Shown piece after piece: positions 3,360 through 57,206 of a stretch of 57,206 bases of DNA (its first letter is position 1; each line of letters begins with the position of its first letter). The notes under the pieces were generated by a model. It worked only from the letters and a program-made list of their open reading frames with translations, searched no databases and was not told where the DNA came from. This stretch comes from Candidatus Yonathbacteria bacterium RIFCSPLOWO2_01_FULL_43_27. Lineage in GTDB: Bacteria; Patescibacteriota; Minisyncoccia; Phycocordibacterales; UBA1550. The stretch is from positions 1 through 57,206 of the forward strand of contig MHUV01000002.1 of NCBI GenBank assembly GCA_001823545.1, given 5' to 3'. The position numbers were made by a program, and so were the translations under genes.

Positions 3360-4631
3360 ATGACAACTATCGTTCAAAAATTAAAACTTATTATCGGAGA
3401 CGCAACGCTCAGAAACCGAGTACTTTTTGTTCTTGGTGCGCTTGTTATTTTCCGCTTTTTTGCGAACATCCCAATTCCAGCTGCGCTCGGACAAAATCTC
3501 ACTGCACTCATTTCTCAGAATCAGGCACTTGGCTTCCTTAATCTTTTGACAGGAGGTGGCCTTTCTGCTGTTTCTCTCGTAATGCTTGGTGTTGGCCCCT
3601 ACATTACCGCATCGATTATTATGCAACTTCTTACGATGATGTCGCCAAAATTTAAGGCGATGCACAGTGAGGAAGGGGAATTGGGTCGTCGTAAGTTTAC
3701 TCAATATTCACGTTTACTTTCCGTTCCGCTTGCTATTACCCAAGGGTATGGACTTCTTGCGTACTTGAGCAGTCAGGGTATCCTTCCTGCACTCACACCA
3801 CTTGATTACTTAATCAATGTCTCGATCGTTGTAGGAGGTTCACTTTTCCTTATGTGGATAGGCGAGCTTATATCAGAGTTCGGTATTGGAAACGGTGTTT
3901 CACTGATTATCTTTGCAGGTATCATTGCACAACTCCCTACCACATTAGGACAACTTGTTTTTACGTTTGATGTGTCACAGATTCCTTTATACTTCGGCGC
4001 TCTTGTCGCTATTCTTTTAATTGTGCTCGCGGTGGTGTATATAACCGAAGCAGAGCGTCCGGTTCCTGTTACCTATGCAAAACAGTCGCGTGGGGGAAGA
4101 ACCACTGCTGGTGGAACAACATATCTTCCACTTCGTGTTAATCAGGCAGGCGTTATCCCTATCATCTTTGCGCTTTCAATACTCATTTTCCCTAACGTTA
4201 TTGCAAATGCGCTTGCTTCACTCGGAAATGAATCAGTGCAAGTTATTGCAACGTTTATTAAAGATGCACTCGCAAATATTTGGGTAAATGGCATTTTGTA
4301 CTTTGTCCTTGTTTTCATCTTTACGTATTTCTATACCGCTATCACCTTTGACCCTGACGCAATCGCTACCAACCTTCAAAAGAATGGCGCGTTTGTACCG
4401 GGTATTCGTCCTGGAACACATACTTCAGAATACCTTGCAAGGATTTTGACACGCCTCACACTCGTAGGTGCTGTATTCCTTGGTATCATTGCGGTGTTGC
4501 CACTCATTATGCAGGAGGTTACTAACGTGCAATCGCTTGCAGTTGGTGGTACAGGACTTCTCATCGTGGTGTCGGTAATCCTCGAACTCGTAAAGAAAGT
4601 GGATGCTCAGGTTTCAATGAGAGAATACTAA
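3360..4631 (+). CDS. secY: Preprotein translocase subunit SecY
   Basis: A 423-aa polytopic membrane protein with SecY motifs (LGQNLTALISQNQALGFLNLLTGGGLS...GVGPYITASIIMQLL), sited after L15. Confidence 0.95.
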   Translation: MTTIVQKLKLIIGDATLRNRVLFVLGALVIFRFFANIPIPAALGQNLTALISQNQALGFLNLLTGGGLSAVSLVMLGVGPYITASIIMQLLTMMSPKFKAMHSEEGELGRRKFTQYSRLLSVPLAITQGYGLLAYLSSQGILPALTPLDYLINVSIVVGGSLFLMWIGELISEFGIGNGVSLIIFAGIIAQLPTTLGQLVFTFDVSQIPLYFGALVAILLIVLAVVYITEAERPVPVTYAKQSRGGRTTAGGTTYLPLRVNQAGVIPIIFALSILIFPNVIANALASLGNESVQVIATFIKDALANIWVNGILYFVLVFIFTYFYTAITFDPDAIATNLQKNGAFVPGIRPGTHTSEYLARILTRLTLVGAVFLGIIAVLPLIMQEVTNVQSLAVGGTGLLIVVSVILELVKKVDAQVSMREY

Positions 4632-9652: not shown

Positions 9653-9807
9653 CTCCCTGCCTCCCTTAGAGTTTTTATATGATGTGCAATTGTCAAAGAA
9701 CGACAATTTATCCTATATATATTATAGCAAATTTATGTAAAATGTCAATAGTTCAATAAAGGTTAATGGATATTTCTTTCTTTAAGGATTTCATCAGATT
9801 ATTTGTG

Positions 9808-9887
9808 GGCACGGGGAGATTTGAACTCCCAACCCTTGCGGGATGCGCTTCTGAGACGCACGCGTATACCAATTCCGCCACGTGCCC
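9808..9887 (-). tRNA. tRNA-Leu (anticodon CAG), type II with a long variable arm
   Basis: The reverse complement reads GGGCACG-TG-GCGGAATTGGTATACGC-G-TGCGT[CTCAGAA]GCGCA-TCCCGCAAGGGTT-GGGAGTTCAAATCTCCC-CGTGCCC-A. The acceptor pairs fully. The D-arm matches bacterial tRNA-Leu. Confidence 0.8.
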
Positions 9888-10193
9888 ATATTGTATTTGT
9901 ATTGAAGAGGGAAGCGTGTCTATTTTTGTGCCGAGGAGAGGACTCGGTCAAGCGCTCGCTCGTCGTCACCACGTTTTTCGCTCTCTCCCTACAGGAGCAG
10001 TACACCTTTTGGCTCTTTTGTTTCGCCTGCTCACAAAACAGCTTAAAAGGTCTTGCGGAAGCTCCACGTATTCGCTTCCTTACCTGCTTGTGCGACCCAT
10101 CGAGCACGACGGGTACCCGCACTCGCTTTCGAGTCCTCTCCTCCGCCTACAAAATTTAGTTACGAAAAGCTACCACTTTTCGTTTCCAATTTT

Positions 10194-10236
10194 GTGCCGA
10201 GGAGAGGACTCGAACCTCCACAGGTTACCCCTTCCT
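10194..10236 (-). pseudogene. Orphan 3' portion of a Leu-type tRNA (variable arm, T-arm and acceptor 3' strand) with no contiguous 5' half
   Basis: The reverse complement reads ...GGGGTAACCTGTG-GAGGTTCGAGTCCTCT-CCTCGGC-A. It is nearly identical to the 3' part of tRNA-Leu(UAG). No matching GCCGAGG acceptor strand or valid anticodon stem lies in the adjoining 5' sequence. Confidence 0.5.
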
Positions 10237-10343
10237 AATGCCTGTTTCGCGTACGCTCAACAACGGCATTTGCGCATACGCGCACCGGATGAAAATCAAA
10301 GCAGTTTGATTTTCATTCCCGCGTCAGTTCGTCACGCGCAAAG

Positions 10344-10425
10344 TGCTGGGGAGAGGACTCGAACCTCCACAGGTTACCCCGACTGCTCCTAAGGCAGTTG
10401 CGTCTACCAATTTCGCCACCCCAGC
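10344..10425 (-). tRNA. tRNA-Leu (anticodon UAG)
   Basis: The reverse complement reads GCTGGGG-TG-GCGAAATTGGTAGACGC-A-ACTGC[CTTAGGA]GCAGT-CGGGGTAACCTGTG-GGAGGTTCGAGTCCTCT-CCCCAGC-A. Confidence 0.8.
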
Positions 10426-10437
10426 ACTTTAGGCGCG

Positions 10438-10467
10438 ACTTGCGTCTACCAATTTCGCCACCTCGGC
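10438..10467 (-). pseudogene. Orphan 5' portion of a Leu-type tRNA (acceptor 5' strand and D-arm only)
   Basis: The reverse complement reads GCCGAGG-TG-GCGAAATTGGTAGACGCAAG. The D-arm is identical over 21 nt to tRNA-Leu(UAG), then the sequences diverge. Its acceptor GCCGAGG is exactly complementary to the CCTCGGC of the 3' fragment at 10194-10236. Confidence 0.5.
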
Positions 10468-10957
10468 TTCTTCATAACAACTTACACTAAATAACAAGAA
10501 AAAGCGAGTTTTGAGATTGATCTGAATCTCGTTTAGTGACGTTTGTGGTCACAGATAATTTCCTCGCCGTCGCTCGGAAATTTCGCAGTCACAACTTTTT
10601 GCTCGACCGCCGTCTCGCAAAAGTCGCGACCCCTCCTCACTCGTTTTTCTTGCTAGAAAAACGAGTTCCGGCCTTGCGAAGCTCCATGTATTCGCTTCTC
10701 ACCTGGCTCGCTGTTTTGTTTTGCTAAACAAAACATGCTTCGCCTTGCACAAACTAAAAATCTGCCGCAGGCGCTGTTTTTCTTTACGTTTGAATTGCTA
10801 TTTTTGTGGTCACAAGTCACTAAGTCTACTCGTGCGAGTACGCACTGCGTGGACGTAAGTGCTCGCGACCCCGGCTCGTGGTTTTGTGTGCTCACAAAAC
10901 ATCACTGCGCCTTGCACAATGAGAAAATGGTGCGCAGGCACCATTTTCTTTTCATTG

Positions 10958-11030
10958 TGCACCCACCTGGACTCGAACCAGGGACCATCTCCTTAAGAGG
11001 GAGTTGCTCTACCAACTGAGCTATGGATGC
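10958..11030 (-). tRNA. tRNA-Lys (anticodon CUU)
   Basis: The reverse complement reads GCATCCA-TA-GCTCAGTTGGTAGAGC-A-ACTCC[CTCTTAA]GGAGA-TGGTC-CCTGGTTCGAGTCCAGG-TGGGTGC-A. The acceptor has one G-U pair. The anticodon stem has an A-A mismatch at 27-43. Confidence 0.7.
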
Positions 11031-11142
11031 AGACCTATATTCAAAGAGTATACACAAAAATAAAGATTTTGGAAGAGTTTGTGCTTTGAGTTTAATAATT
11101 AGAGGCAAGTAAGATTAACCTAAGTTTTTAAAATACACGAAA

Positions 11143-11205
11143 TCCGTATTAGCTCCTCGGCTCGGAAGTGAGAAAGATTACTTTCTCACTTCACTCGCTC
11201 TACGT
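11143..11205 (+). repeat. Dispersed roughly 60-nt repeat (family A), copy 1; it contains the hairpin GTGAGAAAG-atta-CTTTCTCAC
   Basis: GTATTAGCTCCTCGGCTCGGAAGTGAGAAAGATTACTTTCTCACTTCACTCGCTCTACGT. A near-identical inverted copy lies at 20281-20340. Confidence 0.8.
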
Positions 11206-11243
11206 CGCTAATAATATTGCTCGTAGTTCCTGATTTGTTTAGT

Positions 11244-11324
11244 GGGTCAGGAGGGAATCGAACCCTCAATCCTTTCGGCGGGAAATTTTAAGTTTCCTGT
11301 GTATACCATTCCACCACTGACCCT
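11244..11324 (-). tRNA. tRNA-Leu (anticodon UAA)
   Basis: The reverse complement reads GGGTCAG-TG-GTGGAATGGTATACAC-A-GGAAA[CTTAAAA]TTTCC-CGCCGAAAGGATT-GAGGGTTCGATTCCCTC-CTGACCC-A. Confidence 0.8.
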
Positions 11325-11326
11325 TT

Positions 11327-11803
11327 TTAGGATTTTTTCTTTCGATTAAGTCCTCGATGCGTTGGTTTTAAACTGTGGCAATTTGGACAAAGAATCCGAA
11401 GATTCTCTATTCTGTTGTCTGTTCTGTCCCCATTTATATGGTCAAGCTCAACTGGGATTCTACCATCAATCGACTTTTTCGCCCAGCCACATTCTTCGCA
11501 TTGTGAATTTTTTAAATTATCTTTGAAGAGTCGTCGTTTCAGCTTGTAGCTTTGGAAACGGCTATCTCTCGTAAGGATCTTATTGAGAGGTATGAGTGGC
11601 TTACCGATTCCCTTTAGTCCTTTACTCCATCCAATGCCAGTAAAGTGTTTAATATCCAGACCGTAATCTTTGACGGCATTGTTAATTTGCGCATAATTTC
11701 CTCCTGCCTCTTTTAGATTGAGTTTTTTGAGAACTTGCCGTACGCTTGTAGAGTTTTTAACAGCGACCCTCAATTGTTCTTCTGTCCAACTTCGTTTCCT
11801 CAT
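11327..11803 (-). CDS. HNH endonuclease (homing-endonuclease-like), free-standing within the tRNA island
   Basis: C-terminal ELDHINGDRTDNRIENLRILCPNCH is the classic HNH core, with an additional CEECGW zinc-finger pair. The N-terminal region (WTEEQLRVAVKNSTSVRQVLKKLNL...GGNY) looks like a small DNA-binding module. The start is placed at MRKRSW. The stop lies 3 nt from the tRNA-Leu(UAA) 3' end. Confidence 0.85.
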   Translation of the reverse strand: MRKRSWTEEQLRVAVKNSTSVRQVLKKLNLKEAGGNYAQINNAVKDYGLDIKHFTGIGWSKGLKGIGKPLIPLNKILTRDSRFQSYKLKRRLFKDNLKNSQCEECGWAKKSIDGRIPVELDHINGDRTDNRIENLRILCPNCHSLKPTHRGLNRKKKS

Positions 11804-11914
11804 GCATAAAAGTATACCATAATGGAAGGCATAGAGGAATACATGTACATAGTTGCCTACCTTTTTAATTAAGAAACTCAATTATATTGCAATTCTTTCT
11901 TGAGGCGTGGGCTC

Positions 11915-11980
11915 CTCTCGGTCACGAGTTACTAAGTGTGCTCGGGCGACTACGCCCTGTGCGCACTAAGTACTCTCGAC
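11915..11980 (+). repeat. Dispersed roughly 65-nt repeat (family R), copy 2
   Basis: GTCACGAGTTACTAAGTGTGCTCGGGCGACTACGCCCTGTGCGCACTAAGTACTCTCGACCCGGGCTCG. Its reverse complement recurs at 20641-20705 with a few substitutions. A diverged copy lies at 10806-10877. Confidence 0.8.
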
Positions 11981-12085
11981 CCGGGCTCGCTGTCGCTTTG
12001 CGACATGCTCCGCCTTTCGATTCTCGACGCAGGCAAAGCAGTTTGCCTGCTCCCACGCCAAGAAAATTCTCTAAGAATTTTCTTG

Positions 12086-12157
12086 AGGCGTGGGCGAGAA
12101 TCGAACTCGCGCATAGGGGATTTGCAGTCCCCCGCCTTACCACTTGGCCACCACGCC
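12086..12157 (-). tRNA. tRNA-Cys (anticodon GCA)
   Basis: The reverse complement reads GGCGTGG-TG-GCCAAGTGGTAAGGC-G-GGGGA[CTGCAAA]TCCCC-TATGC-GCGAGTTCGATTCTCGC-CCACGCC-T. The discriminator U73 is the Cys identity element. Confidence 0.85.
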
Positions 12158-20435: not shown

Positions 20436-20519
20436 GCGTAGGTGGTAGAGCGGTCAATTACAACAGACTGTAAATCTGTCGCCCATTGGGCTACGCAGGT
20501 TCAAATCCTGCCCTACGCA
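20436..20519 (+). tRNA. tRNA-Tyr (anticodon GUA), type II
   Basis: GCGTAGG-TG-GTAGAGCGGTCAATTAC-A-ACAGA[CTGTAAA]TCTGT-CGCCCATTGGGCT-ACGCAGGTTCAAATCCTGC-CCTACGC-A. Confidence 0.85.
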
Positions 20520-20567
20520 CAATACAAAAAACGCCCCTCAAGGGGCGTTTTTTGTATTGTGCGTAGG
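20512..20567. terminator. Terminator hairpin embedded in a 56-nt perfect palindrome that includes the tRNA-Tyr 3' acceptor strand
   Basis: CCTACGCACAATACAAAAAACGCCCC-tcaa-GGGGCGTTTTTTGTATTGTGCGTAGG. The core hairpin plus T-run is at 20526-20553. Confidence 0.75.
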
Positions 20568-48786: not shown

Positions 48787-51594
48787 TTGCTTGTGAAATA
48801 TGGTATACTTTATACATATATGGCACTATGGGGAGCACAACATCATGAAAGAGGGGAGCAAGGTAACTCTTTAGGGAATACAAAAAAATTTGAAACTCCC
48901 CACGAGGAGATTGCATATTTACGCGCACGTATCGAAGAACAGGAACAGGTGATGACACAAAATGGTCATACTATTGAACGACCGCATGTCGCGAAAGAAA
49001 AGATTTTAGAATATCGCGAGGAGGTTCCTGAAAAAATATTAAAGGAAACATATCAGATTAAGGCACAGGAAATAGAAGAGCGTGTACTTGGATTAGATAA
49101 AGAGCGTTCAGAAATGATTGATGAACTCGTGCGCATTATGATGGAACGTGGTATTAAAAATACACTCACCATACTTGAAAAGTTGCACAACCCTCGCCTC
49201 GAAGACGACTTCCATCGTTTTCTCGTGCAGTTTCTTTCAGACACATCGTTCACTTCAATAGTAAAAGAACGCGTACTCTTTCGTGCGCTTCGTATGCGTT
49301 TGTACGAGATCACCTTACCGCCGATTAATCAAAAAGGTGAAGCAAGAAGTTTTGCAGACCTCGTAACAGGAATGGAACAGTTTTATGCAGGAATGCTTTC
49401 CGTAGAGGCGACATCTTCTGTGTGGGGCGAAGTAAAAAATTACTTTACTCTTGAGCTCGCACTTTCAAATATTTCAAGCGAAGTGGTGTTTTATGCGGCA
49501 GTGCCTTTTGAATACAGCGACTTATTTGAAAAGCAAATACTTTCTGCATATCCAGATGCAAAAATTCGTGAGCATAAAGAAGACTACAATCCATTTAATG
49601 AAGCGGGAGTAACGCTTGCTTCTGTTGCTGAACCAGTAGGAAATCAGGTTTTTGCCATGAAGACGTTTGAAAAGTTTTCCCAGGATCCGTTAAATACACT
49701 TCTTGGTGCCTTTAGTAAGATAGAGCACGCAGGAGAGGGTGTTGCGATACAGTTTGTTATTGAGCCACAAGGAAAGGCGTTTAATGATGTCTATAAAAAT
49801 GCGAGAGAGGAAATTAAAAAAGGTATACCGGTAAAAAAAGCGCTTGAGAGTACCACGATGCGTTTTGCTACGGGTTTTGCCTCGGTAGCCAAAGAACTCA
49901 TGTTTGGTATTAAGAAGAATGAAGAACATATTGACCAAGAAGCGGTTGAGAGTATTACAGAAAAAATCTCTTCACCGGTAGTGGATACCAATATTCGCAT
50001 TGTGGTGTCGGCGGGGGATGAAGCACGCGCGACAGCACTTTTGAATGAACTTGAATCCACGTTTAATCAATTCAATAAACCACACGCTAACGGTATTAAA
50101 TGGCGTCGCCTTACGACGGGTGCAGAACTTGCAAAAACTATTTCTCAGTACTCGTTCCGTATATTTGAGAAGAATCAAAGTTTTCCGTTGAATCTTAAAG
50201 AGCTTACAACGATATTCCATTTCCCCGTAACAGAAGTATCCTCTCCTGAGCTCAAAGAATCCCGCGCGGGAGTTGCGCCAGCACCGCTCACACTTTCTTC
50301 TGAGGGTGTCGTACTTGGTGTAAATCGTTATCATAATAAAGAAACACAGGTGCATATGGGGCGCGAGGATCGCATGCGTCATTTATATGTCATTGGACAG
50401 ACGGGAACTGGGAAGACGAGCATTTTGAAAAATATGATTGTGCAGGATATCCGCAATGGTGACGGCGTCTGTTTCATTGATCCGCATGGTTCTGACATAC
50501 AGGATATTCTTGCCCTTGTGCCACCTGAACGTGCAGATGACGTCATTTATTTTGATCCTGCTGATACAGCGCGTCCTATGGGGCTCAATATGCTTGAGTA
50601 TGATAGAGAGAAGCCCGAACAAAAAACGTTTGTGGTGAACGAGATGATGAATATCTTCAATCAACTCTTTGATATGAAGGTTGGTGGTGGGCCAATGTTT
50701 GATCAGTATTTTAGAAATGCAGCAGCGCTCGTGATGGAGCATCCAGAATCTGGCTCTACGCTTCTCGAGATTACCCGTGTACTTGCGGATAAGGATTTTC
50801 GTGCAATGAAGCTTGCGCACTGTAAAAATCCTATCATCGCACAGTTTTGGACAAGCGCAGAAAAAACTACCGGAGATCAAGGGCTCGCAAATTTTGTGCC
50901 CTACATCTCGAGTAAGTTTGATAACTTTATTTCCAACGATATTATGCGTCCGATTGTGCTCCAGCAGAACTCGACGCTTAATTTTAGAAAGATTATGGAC
51001 GAGAAAAAGATTCTCCTCGTCAATCTTTCAAAAGGACGCTTGGGTGATATCAACGCCAATTTCATCGGGCTTTTGCTCGTAGGGAAAATAATGATGGCAG
51101 CTCTTTCGCGGGTAGATATGTTTGGTACGGGTACCACGCCAAAGGATTTTTATTTGTATATCGACGAATTCCAAAATGTGACGACGCCTTCTATCGCAAC
51201 TATTCTTTCCGAAGCGCGCAAGTATCGTCTCTCGCTCACCGTAGCGCACCAATTTATTGCACAACTTACCGATGAAATAAAAAATGCGGTATTTGGTAAC
51301 GTGGGTTCGATGGCGGTGTTCCGTGTTGGTCCCGATGATGCAAAATATCTCGAGAGTAAGTTTGCACCTACCTTTAGCGCTGAGGATATAACACGCCTCG
51401 ATAACTATCAAGCGTATCTGAGTCTTTTAATTAACGGTCAGCCAGGGAAGTCGTTCAATATTGCTACGTTGTCACCAGAAAAGGGTGACGCGTCTTCCGC
51501 AGAGCACATAAAAGAACTCTCTCGTTCGAAGTATGGACTTTCTCGAGAGATAGTTGAAGCGGAAATTTTTTCGCGTTTTGAGGCAGGGAAGTGA
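48787..51594 (+). CDS. VirD4/TraG-like (type IV coupling protein family) ATPase. It is soluble, with a roughly 500-aa N-terminal extension and no TM anchor.
   Basis: Walker A GQTGTGKT, then FIDPHGSD (compare the v.DPKGE motif). DVIYFDPADTARPMGLNMLE (compare the NPL motif). Walker B LYIDEFQNV. C-terminal EARKYRLSLTVAHQFIAQL resembles the TraG-D_C pattern RKyg..l....Q...QL. The start could be 48820 or 48952 (AGGTG before MTQNGH). Confidence 0.65.
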   Translation: MLVKYGILYTYMALWGAQHHERGEQGNSLGNTKKFETPHEEIAYLRARIEEQEQVMTQNGHTIERPHVAKEKILEYREEVPEKILKETYQIKAQEIEERVLGLDKERSEMIDELVRIMMERGIKNTLTILEKLHNPRLEDDFHRFLVQFLSDTSFTSIVKERVLFRALRMRLYEITLPPINQKGEARSFADLVTGMEQFYAGMLSVEATSSVWGEVKNYFTLELALSNISSEVVFYAAVPFEYSDLFEKQILSAYPDAKIREHKEDYNPFNEAGVTLASVAEPVGNQVFAMKTFEKFSQDPLNTLLGAFSKIEHAGEGVAIQFVIEPQGKAFNDVYKNAREEIKKGIPVKKALESTTMRFATGFASVAKELMFGIKKNEEHIDQEAVESITEKISSPVVDTNIRIVVSAGDEARATALLNELESTFNQFNKPHANGIKWRRLTTGAELAKTISQYSFRIFEKNQSFPLNLKELTTIFHFPVTEVSSPELKESRAGVAPAPLTLSSEGVVLGVNRYHNKETQVHMGREDRMRHLYVIGQTGTGKTSILKNMIVQDIRNGDGVCFIDPHGSDIQDILALVPPERADDVIYFDPADTARPMGLNMLEYDREKPEQKTFVVNEMMNIFNQLFDMKVGGGPMFDQYFRNAAALVMEHPESGSTLLEITRVLADKDFRAMKLAHCKNPIIAQFWTSAEKTTGDQGLANFVPYISSKFDNFISNDIMRPIVLQQNSTLNFRKIMDEKKILLVNLSKGRLGDINANFIGLLLVGKIMMAALSRVDMFGTGTTPKDFYLYIDEFQNVTTPSIATILSEARKYRLSLTVAHQFIAQLTDEIKNAVFGNVGSMAVFRVGPDDAKYLESKFAPTFSAEDITRLDNYQAYLSLLINGQPGKSFNIATLSPEKGDASSAEHIKELSRSKYGLSREIVEAEIFSRFEAGK

Positions 51595-52564: not shown

Positions 52565-53590
52565 CTATTCCGTTTCTTTTAGTTTCTCTTTAATCTGTTT
52601 CAAGAGCTCGTTGCGTACCGCTTTGTTTTCTTTGTCTGCAAGGAATTGACACGCTGAGTCATAGCCACGACCGATTTTTACCTCGCCGTAGGTGTATGAG
52701 GATCCAGATTTTTGTAGAATCTCAAACTTTTCACCGAGTCCAAGAATTTCACCCTCCTGTGAGATACCTTTGTTGTACAAGAGGTCAAACTCTGCTTGTT
52801 TGAATGGTGCAGCGACTTTGTTTTTAACAACTTTTACCTTGATGCGCCCGCCAATGACGTCCTCACCTTTTTTTATTTGTGCGGTACGACGGATATCGAG
52901 ACGAACCGAGGTGTAAAACTTGAGTGCTTTGCCACCCGGCGTTGTTTCAGGATTGCCAAACATCACGCCAATTTGCATACGAATTTGGTTGATGAAAATA
53001 ACAATCGTTTTTGATTTGTCGACGATCGCGGTGAGTTTGCGGAGTGCCTGCGACATCAAACGTGCTTGTTTACCGACGTGGTGCGCGCCCATGTCACCTT
53101 CTATTTCATCTTTTGGGGTGAGCGCGGCAACAGAGTCAACGACGATAACATCGATTTTCCCCGAACGAACAAGGGATTCGGTAATTTCGAGTGCTTGTTC
53201 ACCGGTGTCTGGCTGAGAGATGAGCAAGTTATCGATGTTCACGCCGAGCTTGCGCGCATAATCGGGGTCCATTGCGTGTTCTGCGTCAACAAACGCACAA
53301 ATACCACCCATCTTTTGTGCTTCCGCAACGACGTGGAGCGAAAGCGTGGTTTTTCCAGATGACTCTGGTCCAAAGATTTCTACGATACGACCACGAGGAA
53401 GCCCGCCGACGCCAAGTGCATAGTCGAGGCCGATCGAACCTGTAGGAATGGCGTCTACTCCAACCTTTGGTTTGTCTCCAAGCTTCATAATAGAACCTTC
53501 ACCAAACTTTGCCTGAATGGCCTTGATGGTGTCTTCGATATTCGAGCTAGTTCCTTTTGGTTCTTTAGGAGCTTTTTTTGCTAGTGCCAT
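52565..53590 (-). CDS. recA: Recombinase RecA
   Basis: [17 protein letters not shown] (Walker A), IVVDSVAAL, and the L1/L2 loop regions. Confidence 0.97.
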
Positions 53591-53608
53591 AATATGTTTG
53601 TTGTGTTA

Positions 53609-54046
53609 TTAATTTGTTCCCGTTGATGTTGTAGTCGATGTTGCCGTTCCTCCTGTCTCGATAGTTTCAGTGATTGTGCTGGTACTTGCGGATGTTGCCA
53701 CCTTGGGTATCAGTATCATTTCTATTACTTCACTACCCGTGCGTCCGTAGCGGTCCCGTGCTTCAAGGGTCATTATATTATACCCCGAGGATAGGAGCAA
53801 TTGTTCGCTAAAATTTCCATCGAGATCAATGGTTGTGGTGGCGTTGTTGATAAAAAAGAGGTTTCCTCTGAGTACCCTTCCGGCAATAGTTATCATTGGT
53901 GTAGTGGTCGCGTATCCGGTTTGCGGGGTCGTGATATCAATACGTGGTCTGCGCAAGACGTCTTTTAATGCAAAGAATGAATACCCTACTACCATAAGTA
54001 TGCCGAGTATGATAAGTATTCTAATAATAAGATTTCGGGAGAGCAT
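53609..54046 (-). CDS. Membrane-anchored hypothetical protein with a Thr/Ser-rich C-terminal tail
   Basis: An N-terminal TM helix (IIRILIILGILMVVGYSFFAL), a soluble domain, and the tail TSASTSTITETIETGGTATSTTTSTGTN. Confidence 0.5.
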   Translation of the reverse strand: MLSRNLIIRILIILGILMVVGYSFFALKDVLRRPRIDITTPQTGYATTTPMITIAGRVLRGNLFFINNATTTIDLDGNFSEQLLLSSGYNIMTLEARDRYGRTGSEVIEMILIPKVATSASTSTITETIETGGTATSTTTSTGTN

Positions 54047-54065
54047 ATGGTTAGTGTCTTATATG

Positions 54066-56330
54066 TTAGATCCCGTCCGTCTCTTCCCCTGCTTTTATGA
54101 GAACTTGGCGTGGTTTTGCGCCGTCACCTGGTCCAATGATGTTGCGTTCCTCAAGCATATCCATAAGGCGTGCAGCGCGTGCATAACCGACTTTGAGGCG
54201 CCGTTGGAGATAGGAAGTTGATGCCTTACCTGCTTCAATGACAATCATTCGTGCATCTTCATATAAATCATCGTCATCGCCACCGTTATTGTCATCAAGC
54301 GTTGCTTCAAAAAGAGGGTCGCGATCGGTACTAATAGATCCTTGCGAGAAATTAATCTCGTCAGGAAGCTTGTCAGTTTCGAGGCCGGCAAGATATTTCA
54401 CAACAGATTTCACTTCCCCTTCGGACATAAAGGCAGATTGAATACGGGTCGGCTTCGACATTTCTCCCGATATATAGAGCATATCGCCGGCACCGAGAAG
54501 TTTCTCTGCACCCGAGGCGTCGAGAATGGTGCGTGAGTCTATCTGTGAGGCAACCTGAAGGGCAACACGGGCCGGGACGTTGGCTTTGATGAGACCGGTG
54601 ATGACATTCACCGAAGGACGCTGGGTTGAGAGAATGAGGTGAATACCGACAGCGCGACTCATTTGTGCGAGACGAACAATAGCACTTTCGAGTTCGCGAG
54701 GATAGCTCTGCATAATATCAGCAAGCTCGTCCAATATGATGACGATGTAGGGCATGCGCTCGGGTATCGTGACATCCATATCTGCACCCGCACTTGTTTT
54801 GTTGTTAGTTGTTTGTTGTTGGTTGTTTGTTTTCTTGAGTGCCGGTTCGAGGACATTCTTGTGGTATGAACTAATGTCGCGCACGGACTCGGCTTCGAGA
54901 ATATTGTAGCGACGATCCATTTCCTTTGCTGCCCACTTGAGCGCAAGGATTGCTTTTTTTGCATCCGTGATGACCGGCGTGAGGAGGTGAGGAATTTTGT
55001 TGTAGAGGGTCAGCTCGACACGCTTAGGGTCGATCATAATGAAGCGAAGATTTTCAGGTGCGTTCCTGTAAAGGAGGGAGTTTACGATGGCGTGAATCGT
55101 TACCGACTTACCTGAACCCGTAGCGCCTGCGATGAGCACGTGAGGCATCTTGGCGAGGTCCGCATAGTACAGTTTCCCAGAGACACCACGACCAAGAGCA
55201 AGAAGGAGTGGCTTTGGAGAATCGCGGTATTCTTCAGACGAAAAGAGGGTCCTCAAACCGACGACTGTTTTCGTGGAATTAGGAACTTCGATACCGACGA
55301 GTGATTGACCAGGGATCGGTGCTTCAATACGAATTGGGTGTGCGGCGAGTGCGTACGAGAGCTCGCTCTGCAGTCCTACGATGCGTGAAAGTTTTACTCC
55401 CTCGGCGGGTTTGAGTGCGTATCTTGTTACCGACGGACCGATGGAAACTTCGTCCATCTCGACCGTGATCCCGTACTGTCCGAGGGTGCGTTTGATGATG
55501 TTCGCGTTTGCTTTGATGTCACCAACACCGGGCTTTCCGCGATCGCCTTCAAGAAGTGAAAGTGGGGGAGGTGTGTAGCTTGTTCCAGAGAGTTCTTTAA
55601 AAGAAATTCCACCACCAAGTCCTTCAGTTTTTTTATCACTAATTTTTTGAACTGCCTGCGCAAGTTTTGATTGTTTTGGGTCCTCTTCTTTTGTCGGAAG
55701 GGGGAGGGTTGGGGCTTCCTCAGGAATGTCGATAATAACTTCCTCGTCTTCCTCTGCTCCTTCGTCATCCGCGCGCTTTCTCCAAAAGAGAAGTGAAGAA
55801 AAATTTGGTCGCGTATTGAACATGACGATGAACGAGATAAGGAGAAATGCGAGAAGGAGGATTACCGTAATGTAGGCATCAAAGAGTGCAATGAGGGGAG
55901 TCGAGATTGCCCATCCAATGATCCCCGCAGTGTCGTTGCCGGAGAAAATGTTAATGAGTCCAAGTGAAGAAAAAAGAAATAGAAATGCACCGACGGCAGA
56001 GGTGGTGGCGATGCTGGGACGCGTGCTACGAAAGAGAGAAATACTGAGAAGAAAAAAGAGGGTAGGGAGGATAAAATATCCGACACCAAAGAGATAGTTG
56101 AGCCCACCATAGAGTGTCTGTCCAAAGATCCCTGCCTTCCCAAAAGGAGCAGAAGAAAGTGCGATACCAAGTACTAAAAAGATAATAGCGAATACGGTAT
56201 GACGAATCTCATCTGCGAGCCCATTCATAAATGAGAGTGGTTTAAATGAAGTATCTTTTTTTGCTTCCCGTGGTTCTTTAACCGTTTGTTTTTTTGAGGA
56301 GCTCCCTTTCTTTCCTTGAGTGTTTGCCAT
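54066..56330 (-). CDS. ftsK: DNA translocase FtsK/SpoIIIE
   Basis: N-terminal TM helices, a linker, Walker A GATGSGKS, Walker B IVIILDELADI, and the C-terminal gamma winged helix (LYEDARMIVIEAGKASTSYLQRRLKVGYARAARLMDMLE). Confidence 0.95.
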   Translation of the reverse strand: MANTQGKKGSSSKKQTVKEPREAKKDTSFKPLSFMNGLADEIRHTVFAIIFLVLGIALSSAPFGKAGIFGQTLYGGLNYLFGVGYFILPTLFFLLSISLFRSTRPSIATTSAVGAFLFLFSSLGLINIFSGNDTAGIIGWAISTPLIALFDAYITVILLLAFLLISFIVMFNTRPNFSSLLFWRKRADDEGAEEDEEVIIDIPEEAPTLPLPTKEEDPKQSKLAQAVQKISDKKTEGLGGGISFKELSGTSYTPPPLSLLEGDRGKPGVGDIKANANIIKRTLGQYGITVEMDEVSIGPSVTRYALKPAEGVKLSRIVGLQSELSYALAAHPIRIEAPIPGQSLVGIEVPNSTKTVVGLRTLFSSEEYRDSPKPLLLALGRGVSGKLYYADLAKMPHVLIAGATGSGKSVTIHAIVNSLLYRNAPENLRFIMIDPKRVELTLYNKIPHLLTPVITDAKKAILALKWAAKEMDRRYNILEAESVRDISSYHKNVLEPALKKTNNQQQTTNNKTSAGADMDVTIPERMPYIVIILDELADIMQSYPRELESAIVRLAQMSRAVGIHLILSTQRPSVNVITGLIKANVPARVALQVASQIDSRTILDASGAEKLLGAGDMLYISGEMSKPTRIQSAFMSEGEVKSVVKYLAGLETDKLPDEINFSQGSISTDRDPLFEATLDDNNGGDDDDLYEDARMIVIEAGKASTSYLQRRLKVGYARAARLMDMLEERNIIGPGDGAKPRQVLIKAGEETDGI

Positions 56331-56417
56331 AAGTAATATTTTTGTATTGTATCAAAAAAACACTATAAAACAAAGGCTTTTATATATAAAAGACATATGT
56401 AAAGGACAAAAAATCAC

Positions 56418-56447
56418 TTGACTTTTTACCCCACTGTCCTTTATAAT
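56418..56447 (+). promoter_or_regulatory. Sigma-70-like promoter (TTGACT, 17 nt, TATAAT) overlapped by an inverted TAAAGGACA motif
   Basis: TTGACTTTTTACCCCACTGTCCTTTATAAT. The spacer and -10 element contain TGTCCTTTAT. Confidence 0.5.
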
Positions 56448-56623
56448 AAGAAAAGAATAAATGTCCGATAAGGACATACACTCAGTATTGTAAAGGACAC
56501 ATAAAAGACACGAATTAAGCAACAAATATTCTGCTTCTAAAAACAAAAAGACATTGAATATGGGATTTCAATATAGACGTTATTTTTAATAGTAAACAAC
56601 CGTAAAGCGAGATTTTTTTAAAC

Positions 56624-57206
56624 AATTTTCCAATGCCTCCTAAAGGACATAACTTACAGAACCAAGGTCAGTCACTCACTCCACATAAGGGGTCCTTTCT
56701 GAATTCTGGAAGCATGGATTCCTTCTCTATTTCTCTCGCAAAAAAATGTGAGCGCCTCGCGACTGCTGAATATCTCGTGACAAGTTTTTTATCAGACACG
56801 GAACCACTCAAGGCACGCCTTCGTGTCCTTTCACTCGATCTTGTGCGTGACGCATCACTCCTCCGGTTTGGTACGGTTGTGAGTGAGCTCGGTGCCTTCG
56901 AAACCCTCCGTGCGAATATCAGTGAGACGCTCTCTCTCCTTGAGCTCGCCTTCATTAATGGTCTCGTTTCAGAAATGAATTTCTCAATTCTCAAGCGTGA
57001 ATATGTCCACCTTCGTGACGCTATTGAGGTCAAAAAAGTTTCTCGCGAATCACGTTCGGATACCGCACTTGGGGATAATTTTTTTGAGAGCACGCAAGCA
57101 CTGTATTCTGCACAAAGTTCCACACTTCCTCTGGCTCCGCAGAACGTTCCGTTTGCAGGGAAGGAACGTGAGAATAATACACCATCTTCTATTGGACATT
57201 CTAAAG
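56624..57206 (+). CDS. 5' part of an unterminated ORF (at least 194 codons) running off the window end. It is not in the supplied track. Hypothetical, possibly a regulator.
   Basis: In frame from ATG 56624 (MPPKGHNL...MDSFSISLAKKCERLATAEYLVTSFL...LSLLELAFINGLVSEMNFSILKREYVHLRDAIEV...) with no stop to 57206. Its composition is protein-like. The listed antisense ORF 56668-57123 is Ser/Arg-rich. An alternative start is the Met at 56705. Confidence 0.4.

Follow-up and report, generated by a model that had tools for sequence, protein, structure and literature searches.

Organization of the locus

The right end of a 57,206-nucleotide stretch of DNA from Candidatus Yonathbacteria bacterium RIFCSPLOWO2_01_FULL_43_27 (contig MHUV01000002.1; the whole stretch is referred to as the window) holds a short intergenic region in which copies of a 9-bp box, TAAAGGACA, are clustered between ftsK and a divergently oriented open reading frame (ORF) that runs off the window. 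This ORF encodes a protein with a DNA-binding domain, referred to below as the regulator. An earlier reading of the window from its letters alone (the sequence-only reading) had proposed either an operator array for an autoregulated regulator or a control region linked to ftsK, and both proposals were followed up here by computational analysis.

An exact search of both strands of the 57,206 bp returned four copies of TAAAGGACA, three of them direct (56400, 56491, and 56641) and one inverted (56435). All four are confined to 250 bp of the 57 kb. The expected number was 0.52, and four or more copies were reached in 0 of 100 shuffles of the window. The cluster is real and nonrandom. These positions, the overlap of the inverted copy with the −10 element of a promoter, and a palindrome at 56461 had all been described in the sequence-only reading and were confirmed. 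Further boxes had not been noted there: allowing one mismatch added TAAAAGACA at 56387 and 56502 as well as a weak GAAAGGACA on the minus strand (56824). A position weight matrix (PWM) trained exclusively on noncoding boxes from other species added AAAAAGACA at 56545, TATTGGACA at 57190, and a box that begins at 57202 and is truncated by the window edge (TAAAG, followed by GACA beyond the edge). With this matrix, the box density amounted to 12.7 per kb at 56380 to 57560, compared to 0.31 per kb in the remainder of 66 kb of this genome. The features of the region are as follows.

54066 to 56330, minus strand: ftsK (754 amino acids [aa]; Pfam domains FtsK_alpha, FtsK_SpoIIIE, and FtsK_gamma), first gene of ftsK-orf145-recA
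56346 to 56354, minus strand: probable ftsK promoter with the extended −10 element TGATACAAT, some 15 nt 5′ of the ftsK ATG
56387 to 56395, plus strand: box TAAAAGACA, upstream of the −35 element of the regulator promoter; PWM score of 17.0; unchanged in six close relatives
56400 to 56408, plus strand: box TAAAGGACA (the "−40 box"), 9 nt 5′ of the −35 element; unchanged in the close clade
56418 to 56447, plus strand: predicted sigma-70-type promoter of the regulator gene, TTGACT-18 nt-TATAAT, matching 11 of 12 consensus positions
56435 to 56443, minus strand: inverted box TGTCCTTTA, which reaches into the first bases of the −10 hexamer (56442 to 56447)
56461 to 56477: palindrome ATGTCC-GATAA-GGACAT (ATGTCCGATAAGGACAT), spanning approximately +8 to +24 relative to the predicted transcription start
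56491 to 56510, plus strand: two direct leader boxes, TAAAGGACA and TAAAAGACA, 11 bp apart; unchanged in the close clade
56545 to 56553, plus strand: weaker leader box AAAAAGACA; PWM score of 11.8; partly kept in the close clade
56633 to 57206, plus strand: regulator gene, first 191 of 296 codons, running off the window (homologue P0001)
56641 to 56649, plus strand: box TAAAGGACA, exact copy in codons 3 to 6 (P-K-G-H)
56824 to 56832, minus strand: weak inverted box GAAAGGACA in the region coding for the N-terminal domain; PWM score of 8.6; membership uncertain
57190 to 57206, plus strand: start of an intragenic (linker) array, TATTGGACA followed by the truncated box, encoding I-G-H-S-K-G-Q; assigned by the PWM and by homologous linker arrays

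The two promoter hexamers, TTGACT (56418 to 56423) and TATAAT (56442 to 56447), are those named in the sequence-only reading, which had given a spacer of 17 nt; the real spacing is 18 nt. In an alignment of the close clade (six relatives with 73 to 84% protein identity), CTTGACTTT and TGTCCTTTATAAT of this promoter are invariant, as are the boxes, from about 56385 to 56510, and the leader between the boxes has diverged. The palindrome, which combines the inverted half-box TGTCCGATA and the direct half-box ATAAGGACA, is kept as well. The inverted box at 56435 to 56443 pairs with 56486 to 56499 as part of a 14-nt inverted repeat (I1). The extended −10 block of ftsK is likewise invariant in the close clade, and a TGnTAnnAT element recurs across loci 10 to 20 nt 5′ of the ftsK ATG.

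The ORF had been placed at 56624 and was described as unterminated, with the last direct box lying on its ATG. It is a real coding gene with a different start: position 56624 is in frame yet is no start codon, the ATG lies at 56633, and the box covers codons 3 to 6 and not the ATG. The NCBI record begins the protein at the second ATG (56714; 269 aa; L001 8808 to 9617), and other assemblies give 296 aa. We favor the 296-aa form and the start at 56633 because the relative L007 has Thr at the position of the second Met.

The regulator belongs to a large family confined to Parcubacteria-type genomes

The regulator ORF is 99% identical across its length to the 296-aa protein P0001. The search recommended in the sequence-only reading, for a DNA-binding domain in the full-length product, was carried out on this homologue and returned a C-terminal winged helix: the sole Pfam match of P0001 is HTH_DeoR (PF08220; residues 238 to 285; E value of 2.2e-6; 27.7 bits with a cutoff of 21). 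An AlphaFold model built from 31 homologues comprises a three-helix N-terminal bundle (residues 26 to 138; predicted local distance difference test score [pLDDT] of about 80), a disordered linker (residues 148 to 230; pLDDT below 50), and a confident C-terminal winged helix that lies beyond the window (residues 230 to 296; pLDDT of about 86). Foldseek matched the winged helix only, to the generic DNA-binding domains of IclR, YodB/MarR, CadC, and Z-alpha. For the N-terminal bundle, no relative was found in the PDB by sequence, and there was no match in Pfam, NCBIfam, or Foldseek.

Homology searches returned 164 homologues, every one of them from Parcubacteria or Patescibacteria assemblies. The N-terminal domain alone retrieved 1,441 cluster representatives at an E value of ≤1e-3; the family thus holds at least 1,441 clusters at 50% identity, with proteins of about 230 to 350 aa in which the domain is always N-terminal. 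The family is large, architecturally uniform, unannotated, and confined to Parcubacteria-type genomes. Across the family, the recognition helix and the wing (SEKTIQRE...LKKxGERRWSxY) hardly vary, and neither does the box. Covariation of box position 5 (G or A) with the recognition helix was also considered; the helix being invariant, the comparison was uninformative.

Two further possibilities for the coding content of the region were rejected. The antisense ORF at 56668 to 57123, which the sequence-only reading had allowed for as the real gene, is a shadow of the regulator gene: the sense ORF is a conserved gene with hundreds of homologues and a Pfam domain. An internal promoter for a product consisting of the winged helix only was dismissed, as no −35-like element accompanies it and TGTCCGTTATAAGG of L093 sits inside the sequence coding for the winged helix.

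Box layout is conserved around the regulator promoter across species

We compared 78 loci from different species, in which protein identity ranged from 81% down to about 30%; counts refer mostly to the 77 other species. Enrichment was evaluated from −300 to +60 of each orthologue start codon, and the expectation was taken from the rest of each locus. Around the start codon, a box with the consensus T-A-A-A-(G/A)-G-A-C-A was 10- to 17-fold enriched. Counts for individual motifs were as follows.

AAAAGACA: 128 observed, 7.4 expected, present in 70 of 77 loci
AAAGGACA: 91 observed, 9.6 expected, present in 54 of 77 loci
TAATGGAC: 48 observed, 0.3 expected, present in 41 of 77 loci
GGACA: 283 observed, 52 expected, present in 76 of 77 loci

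Beyond about −300 to +1000, AAARGACA matched roughly 50 times in about 580 kb, which equals the expectation from base composition, and about 640 kb of flanking DNA contained no other region enriched in the box. Near the regulator gene, more than 90% of the AAARGACA matches were on the sense strand.

An equivalent predicted promoter is present in 72 of the 78 loci, and the layout was read from these 72 loci after anchoring them on the best −10 hexamer. Directly 5′ of the −10 element, an inverted box (TGTCC or TGTCT, mostly as TGTCCG[A/T]TA) was found in 49 loci, and directly 3′ of it, 45 loci carried a direct (A/G)GACA. The full bracket form, TGTCCGTTATATAATGGACA, consists of two oppositely oriented boxes around the −10 element, and in 70 of 78 loci this element is directly adjoined by a box on one side or both. 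About a dozen loci (~12) have a direct box roughly 10 nt 5′ of the −35 element (near −40). Around three direct boxes per locus follow at +30 to +110, and almost none occur further upstream, toward ftsK. The commonest distance from box to box was 11 bp among the 77 loci. The last leader box mostly lies 2 to 6 nt 5′ of the ATG or in codons 3 to 7, and the N terminus MDxKKDI is conserved because this box lies in or near the first codons. Per locus, a median of 6 boxes fell in the promoter-leader-start region and a median of 7 in the remaining gene.

A scan of metagenomes for tandem boxes gave a similar picture of gene specificity: eight of nine matches with four or more boxes were regulator loci. 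Among the 80 matches listed, 70 were two-box matches with no regulator nearby, and no second target class emerged; by our own estimate, these 70 matches are consistent with chance given the size of the database.

A second box array lies within the coding sequence

The boxes do not end with the leader. A second peak of sense-strand boxes, which the sequence-only reading does not mention, was found at +400 to +900, within the sequence coding for the variable linker and the winged helix, and virtually all orthologues carry a homologous linker array. In the regulator gene of the window, extended with L001, boxes lie at 56641, 57190, 57202, and 57393 on the plus strand and at 57234, 57453, and 57530 on the minus strand, in addition to the weak one at 56824; past the window, the linker array goes on with TGTCCGATA (M-S-D-R) and another three boxes. 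Linkers of the Yonathbacteria-like clade have the sequence ...TCTAAAGGACATTCTATCGGACAA-N14-ATGTCCGATAGAAA...AAAGGACAT, corresponding to the conserved peptide (S)KGHSIGQ...MSDRNTKGH. In high-GC relatives (52 to 58% GC), a short linker consists almost wholly of TAAAGGACA boxes, five or six in a row, whose reading alternates between K-G-H and I-K-D.

Such repeats could reflect a motif that acts in the protein. This explanation was ruled out by the switching of reading frames, the codon bias, and a comparison of a coding copy in the window with its noncoding counterpart in L206. Boxes in gene bodies were found in all three reading frames. The box at the start codon is coding in the window and noncoding in the relative L206, where it lies 5 nt before the ATG. 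The regulators contain the tripeptide K-G-(H/Q) 86 times, with AAA GGA in 81 of these cases, versus 3 occurrences in 4.5-fold more control codons of the same loci. Asp that follows Lys is encoded by GAC in 247 of 324 cases versus 110 of 287 in controls (P = 1e-21), and Asp without a preceding Lys has no codon bias. For the Ile of I-K-D in the winged helix, ATA is used in 72% of cases versus 30% for other Ile residues in the same genes (P = 2e-14).

In both arrays, (A/G)GACA is flanked alike, with T at −4 in 83% of noncoding and 72% of linker copies and about 80% A at positions −3 to −1; copies of (A/G)GACA in the background do not have the T/A flanks of the boxes. Upstream, boxes numbered 13.3 per kb, and the linkers had 11.8 per kb, compared to 1.1 per kb in the background. 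The intragenic boxes are selected at the nucleotide level and are kept by the choice of synonymous codons. The array is an unusually clear natural case of an overlapping code, in which the boxes shape the conserved peptide of a disordered linker.

Cooperative negative autoregulation is the probable function of the array

Taken together, the cluster is probably a multisite operator through which the protein encoded downstream would repress its own gene cooperatively, with auxiliary operators inside the gene. The boxes, their conserved layout, and their specificity for one gene, together with the selection on nucleotides and the DNA-binding domain, are direct observations; the downstream product as the binder, repression as the sign of regulation, and a role for the intragenic array are what we infer from sequence. 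The first of the two proposals in the sequence-only reading, an operator array of an autoregulated regulator, thus gains support from a winged-helix ORF, boxes in about 70 of 77 species, and background levels elsewhere. Neither outcome that had been named there as a refutation was obtained: the conserved gene is the sense ORF and not the antisense one, and the motif exceeds background frequency.

The C-terminal winged helix would read the 9-bp box T-A-A-A-(G/A)-G-A-C-A, and the N-terminal helical bundle probably serves oligomerization. Occupancy of the inverted and direct boxes that flank the −10 element of the gene's own sigma-70 promoter would exclude RNA polymerase. The phased direct boxes, often 11 bp apart and thus on one face of the helix, together with the box at the start codon, could allow the protein to spread cooperatively, head to tail, through the leader. 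Boxes just 5′ of the −35 element may join this cooperative binding, and the outcome would be steep negative autoregulation. The second array, about 550 to 750 bp downstream in the sequence coding for the linker and winged helix, may serve as an auxiliary operator that acts by looping to the array at the promoter or as a roadblock.

Several points weigh against this interpretation. The leader boxes are mostly on the sense strand and 3′ of the predicted start, which is also expected if control is exerted at the RNA level. The clade of the window departs from the canonical TGTCC-N10-GGACA bracket by a rearrangement: its inverted box reaches into the −10 element, the direct partner (56491) is 37 nt off, and the small palindrome lies between these two boxes. 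The regulator promoter is predicted and not mapped. Scanning 66 kb of this genome with the PWM revealed no target besides the regulator gene itself, and a regulator that acts solely on its own gene is a biologically incomplete picture. Finally, we found no literature on the regulator family or its motif, including binding, footprint, or expression data.

A more far-reaching version, which we consider speculative and rather unlikely, is that a self-targeting complex coats or loops its own 1.2-kb gene via about 15 boxes, including those in the sequence coding for the linker and winged helix. The linker peptide (KGH, IKD, and MSDR) would then be largely a by-product of selection on DNA, and the locus would act not as a simple feedback loop but as a lineage-wide landmark of the cell cycle or chromosome that is tied to ftsK-recA and to a promoter with a DnaA box downstream of the regulator gene.

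Alternative interpretations

We considered whether the approximately 15 boxes, spread over about 1.2 kb, nucleate a centromere-like or landmark nucleoprotein complex, in the manner of parS with ParB or tubC with TubR, that functions mainly in segregation or chromosome organization, with autoregulation as a by-product. Arrays on both sides of and inside the gene of the putative binder, as well as direct repeats with 11-bp phasing, would suit such a site, and so would the nearly invariant synteny with recA and ftsK, which encodes a DNA translocase (76 of 77 loci), and the lack of further targets in the flanking DNA scanned. However, the operon contains no partner nucleoside triphosphatase (ParA, ParM, or TubZ), the next gene encoding instead a secreted protein with a peptidoglycan-binding-like domain, and the locus displays no switch in GC skew or other positional sign. 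The exact bracketing of the −10 element, in turn, suits a repressor and is not demanded of a centromere. We therefore regard this explanation as unlikely.

Control at the level of RNA appears decidedly unlikely. Under this reading, the regulator or another factor would recognize the transcript itself at the sense-strand UAAAGGACA repeats of the 5′ leader, start codon, and ORF, with an effect on translation or mRNA stability. The reading draws on the strong sense-strand bias of AAARGACA near the gene (>90%), on the approximately three boxes per locus in the predicted transcribed leader, and on the final copy, which usually touches the ribosome-binding region or the start codon. On the other hand, transcription from the predicted promoter would leave out the −40 box, the inverted box that precedes the −10 element, and the direct box between this element and the start, all of them at conserved positions; boxes upstream of the transcription start are unable to act as RNA. 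Gene bodies also contain inverted boxes with proper flanks (64 in linkers and four in the gene of the window). The sense bias within the ORF may be explained by coding: read in sense, the boxes give K, G, H, D, and Q, which would fit a disordered linker, whereas the antisense reading would give C, P, L, V, and F or stop codons. Moreover, the leader folds with −26 kcal/mol versus a mean of −26.2 kcal/mol for shuffles (z = 0.06), Rfam gave no match for the leader at the gathering threshold or, for 56300 to 57206, at an E value of ≤1, and the only recognizable nucleic acid-binding domain of the protein is a winged helix of the type that binds double-stranded DNA.

The second proposal of the sequence-only reading was a control region linked to ftsK. 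In its extended form, the boxes would control the divergent ftsK-orf145-recA genes, and the protein would be an SOS-like or cell cycle regulator that functionally replaces LexA. The linkage itself held up, as ftsK is divergent in 76 of 77 loci and shares a short intergenic region (median of about 237 bp) with the regulator gene; in addition, the boxes at 56387 and 56400, about 45 to 70 nt upstream of the putative ftsK promoter, are invariant in the close clade and might exert a local effect. The control gained little support: across species, the boxes track the −10 element of the regulator and not the ftsK promoter, no box position is consistent relative to the extended −10 element of ftsK, and long intergenic regions are free of boxes on the ftsK side. 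No box array was found among ftsK, orf145, and recA, and no convincing box precedes orf145 or recA, the sole candidate being a moderate site at 54053, and the protein has no LexA-type Peptidase_S24 or LexA_DNA_bind match. We consider this reading very improbable.

An iteron-type replication origin with its initiator gene, as in the pSC101 and pPS10 replicons, with the inverted promoter repeat as the autorepression site, is extremely improbable: direct repeats plus an inverted pair over the gene's own promoter do mirror the logic of iteron plasmids, and a perfect DnaA box about 120 nt past the gene stop is kept in 66 of 74 loci, but this box is single (with one imperfect neighbor) and lies at a fixed 5 to 9 nt from the −35 element of a separate conserved promoter, and therefore looks like a promoter element, while 56300 to 56700 contains no DnaA box, GC skew keeps its positive sign over the whole window and does not switch lastingly in the following 9 kb, gene orientation shows no large-scale divergence, the protein combines one winged helix with a helical bundle and not the WH1-WH2 Rep fold, and a mobile replicon would not be expected to keep core chromosomal synteny in 76 of 77 species.

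Comparison with known systems

Judged by comparison with known systems, the locus would work functionally like an autoregulated winged-helix repressor combined with multioperator looping of the DeoR/lac/gal type. Autoregulated winged-helix repressors of the MarR-marO, ArsR/SmtB, and IclR types have operators over their own promoters, and they share with the regulator the winged helix, inverted repeats around the gene's own −10 element and start, and a site near the ribosome-binding site or start codon. Unlike in these repressors, the helix-turn-helix (HTH) of the regulator is C-terminal, behind a long disordered linker, so that the domain order is reversed, and no relative could be detected for its N-terminal helical bundle. 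Furthermore, its locus has at least six boxes per promoter, mostly direct, versus one or two palindromes, and the ORF itself contains a second array.

E. coli DeoR represses via several distant operators by DNA looping. The regulator resembles DeoR/GlpR in its weak match to HTH_DeoR and in the looping proposed for the promoter and intragenic arrays. It differs in its C-terminal instead of N-terminal HTH and in having no DeoRC sugar-phosphate sensor; a search for the DeoRC effector domain gave no match in the regulator at an E value of ≤0.1. The NCBIfam models for DeoR/GlpR and UlaR scored 16.5 and 14.4 bits, respectively, versus cutoffs of 331 and 244. Membership in the DeoR/GlpR family was rejected on these grounds (HTH at the wrong end, no DeoRC domain, and NCBIfam scores far below the cutoff), and the label "DeoR family" in some sources is nominal.

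Intragenic auxiliary operators with a proposed role in looping are found in lacZ (lacO2) and galE (galOI). As in these cases, the boxes of the regulator gene are embedded in coding DNA a few hundred base pairs past the promoter operator. They differ in lying in the repressor's own gene as an array of 3 to 11 and in that the array dictates a peptide (KGH, KGQ, IKD, and MSDR) that is kept across a class-level lineage.

Direct repeats spaced by about one helical turn, an inverted pair at the binder's own promoter, and sites inside or flanking the binder gene are features shared with iteron initiators and centromere binders (RepA of pPS10 and pSC101, ParB-parS, ParR-parC, and TubR-tubC). In these systems, parS sites lie inside spo0J, the iterons of parC and tubC are phased direct repeats, and TubR is a winged-helix protein. 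Unlike these systems, the regulator locus has no partner ATPase or GTPase gene and no origin signature, the architecture of the regulator is unrelated, and the locus is core chromosomal and not part of a plasmid or phage. From the repressor and looping systems above, the locus is distinguished by its novel N-terminal domain, the numerous arrays of mostly direct repeats, and the lineage-wide presence of an operator array in the gene's own coding sequence.

Parcubacteria and other bacteria of the candidate phyla radiation (CPR) have few recognizable transcription factors and cannot be grown alone, and to our knowledge, they have essentially no experimentally defined regulatory sites. The locus offers CPR biology a large, unannotated regulator family together with its likely 9-bp recognition box, as well as a conserved promoter architecture that is open to direct testing in vitro or in E. 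coli. If the protein were to govern ftsK and recA or to work with the DnaA-box promoter, it would provide an entry point to cell cycle control.

Neighboring genes and further observations

The order recA, orf145, ftsK, divergent regulator, leader, and large secreted protein is kept (window 52565 to 56330, minus strand; L007 to L083). Following ftsK on the same strand, orf145 encodes 145 aa with a Glucodextran_B-like domain, and recA comes next. Among 77 loci, ftsK was a neighbor in 76, recA in 67, orf145 in 66, and the large secreted protein, which bears a weak resemblance to PG_binding_1, in 54. The moderate lone box-like site mentioned above, ATATAAGACACT, lies at 54053 to 54064 on the minus strand of the window (PWM score of 12.8), in the 19 nt that separate the stop of ftsK from the start of orf145, and may well be due to chance.

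A gap of about 500 to 750 bp without ORFs follows the regulator gene and is conserved in otherwise compact genomes. It contains a perfect DnaA box, TTATCCACA (inverted, TGTGGATAA; L001 8682 to 8690), 5 to 9 nt 5′ of a sigma-70-like promoter (TTTGCA-18 nt-TATAAT; L001 8676 to 8647); the region (L001:8600 to 8690, minus strand) is situated about 435 to 525 nt past the window end. A perfect DnaA box was found in this gap in 66 of 74 loci, with 68 boxes in 55 kb versus about 0.4 expected, and in L007 to L083 the element lies 50 to 700 nt after the regulator stop. A 13-pair hairpin, AAGTTCAGTG...CACTGGATTT, opens the predicted transcript, and compensatory changes affect 5 of its pairs; the leader had no Rfam family match. 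This element looks like a DnaA-controlled promoter plus a structured leader for the secreted-protein gene and not like oriC. In some distant loci, a conserved CATTGAAAAC..CATAGCGAT element lies 3′ of the DnaA-box promoter; this leader element (L055, L056, L060, L069, and L072) may resemble the boxA sequences that serve antitermination in rRNA leaders of Gram-positive bacteria. No tRNA, transfer-messenger RNA, or known RNA family was found in or near the box region.

In several assemblies, a 111-aa ORF was called between the regulator and the next gene (L003:8067 to 8402, minus strand; approximately 57929 to 58264 in coordinates of the extended window). It is Arg rich, has no protein conservation in other species, and overlies the conserved noncoding leader; it is probably a spurious call. 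Beyond the window, on the 3′ side of the large secreted protein, L001 encodes a Y1_Tnp transposase of the IS200/IS605 type (3982 to 4506, minus strand), called with 155 to 174 aa depending on the strain.

Elsewhere in the window, five tRNA genes (Leu-CAG, Leu-TAG, Lys-CTT, Leu-TAA, and Cys-GCA) are grouped over 2.4 kb at 9805 to 12157 on the minus strand, and a separate tRNA-Tyr gene lies at 20436 to 20520 on the plus strand. A gene at 48787 to 51594 (plus strand), which adjoins efp, encodes a protein of 924 to 935 aa with DUF8128 and a faint T4SS-DNA_transf match.

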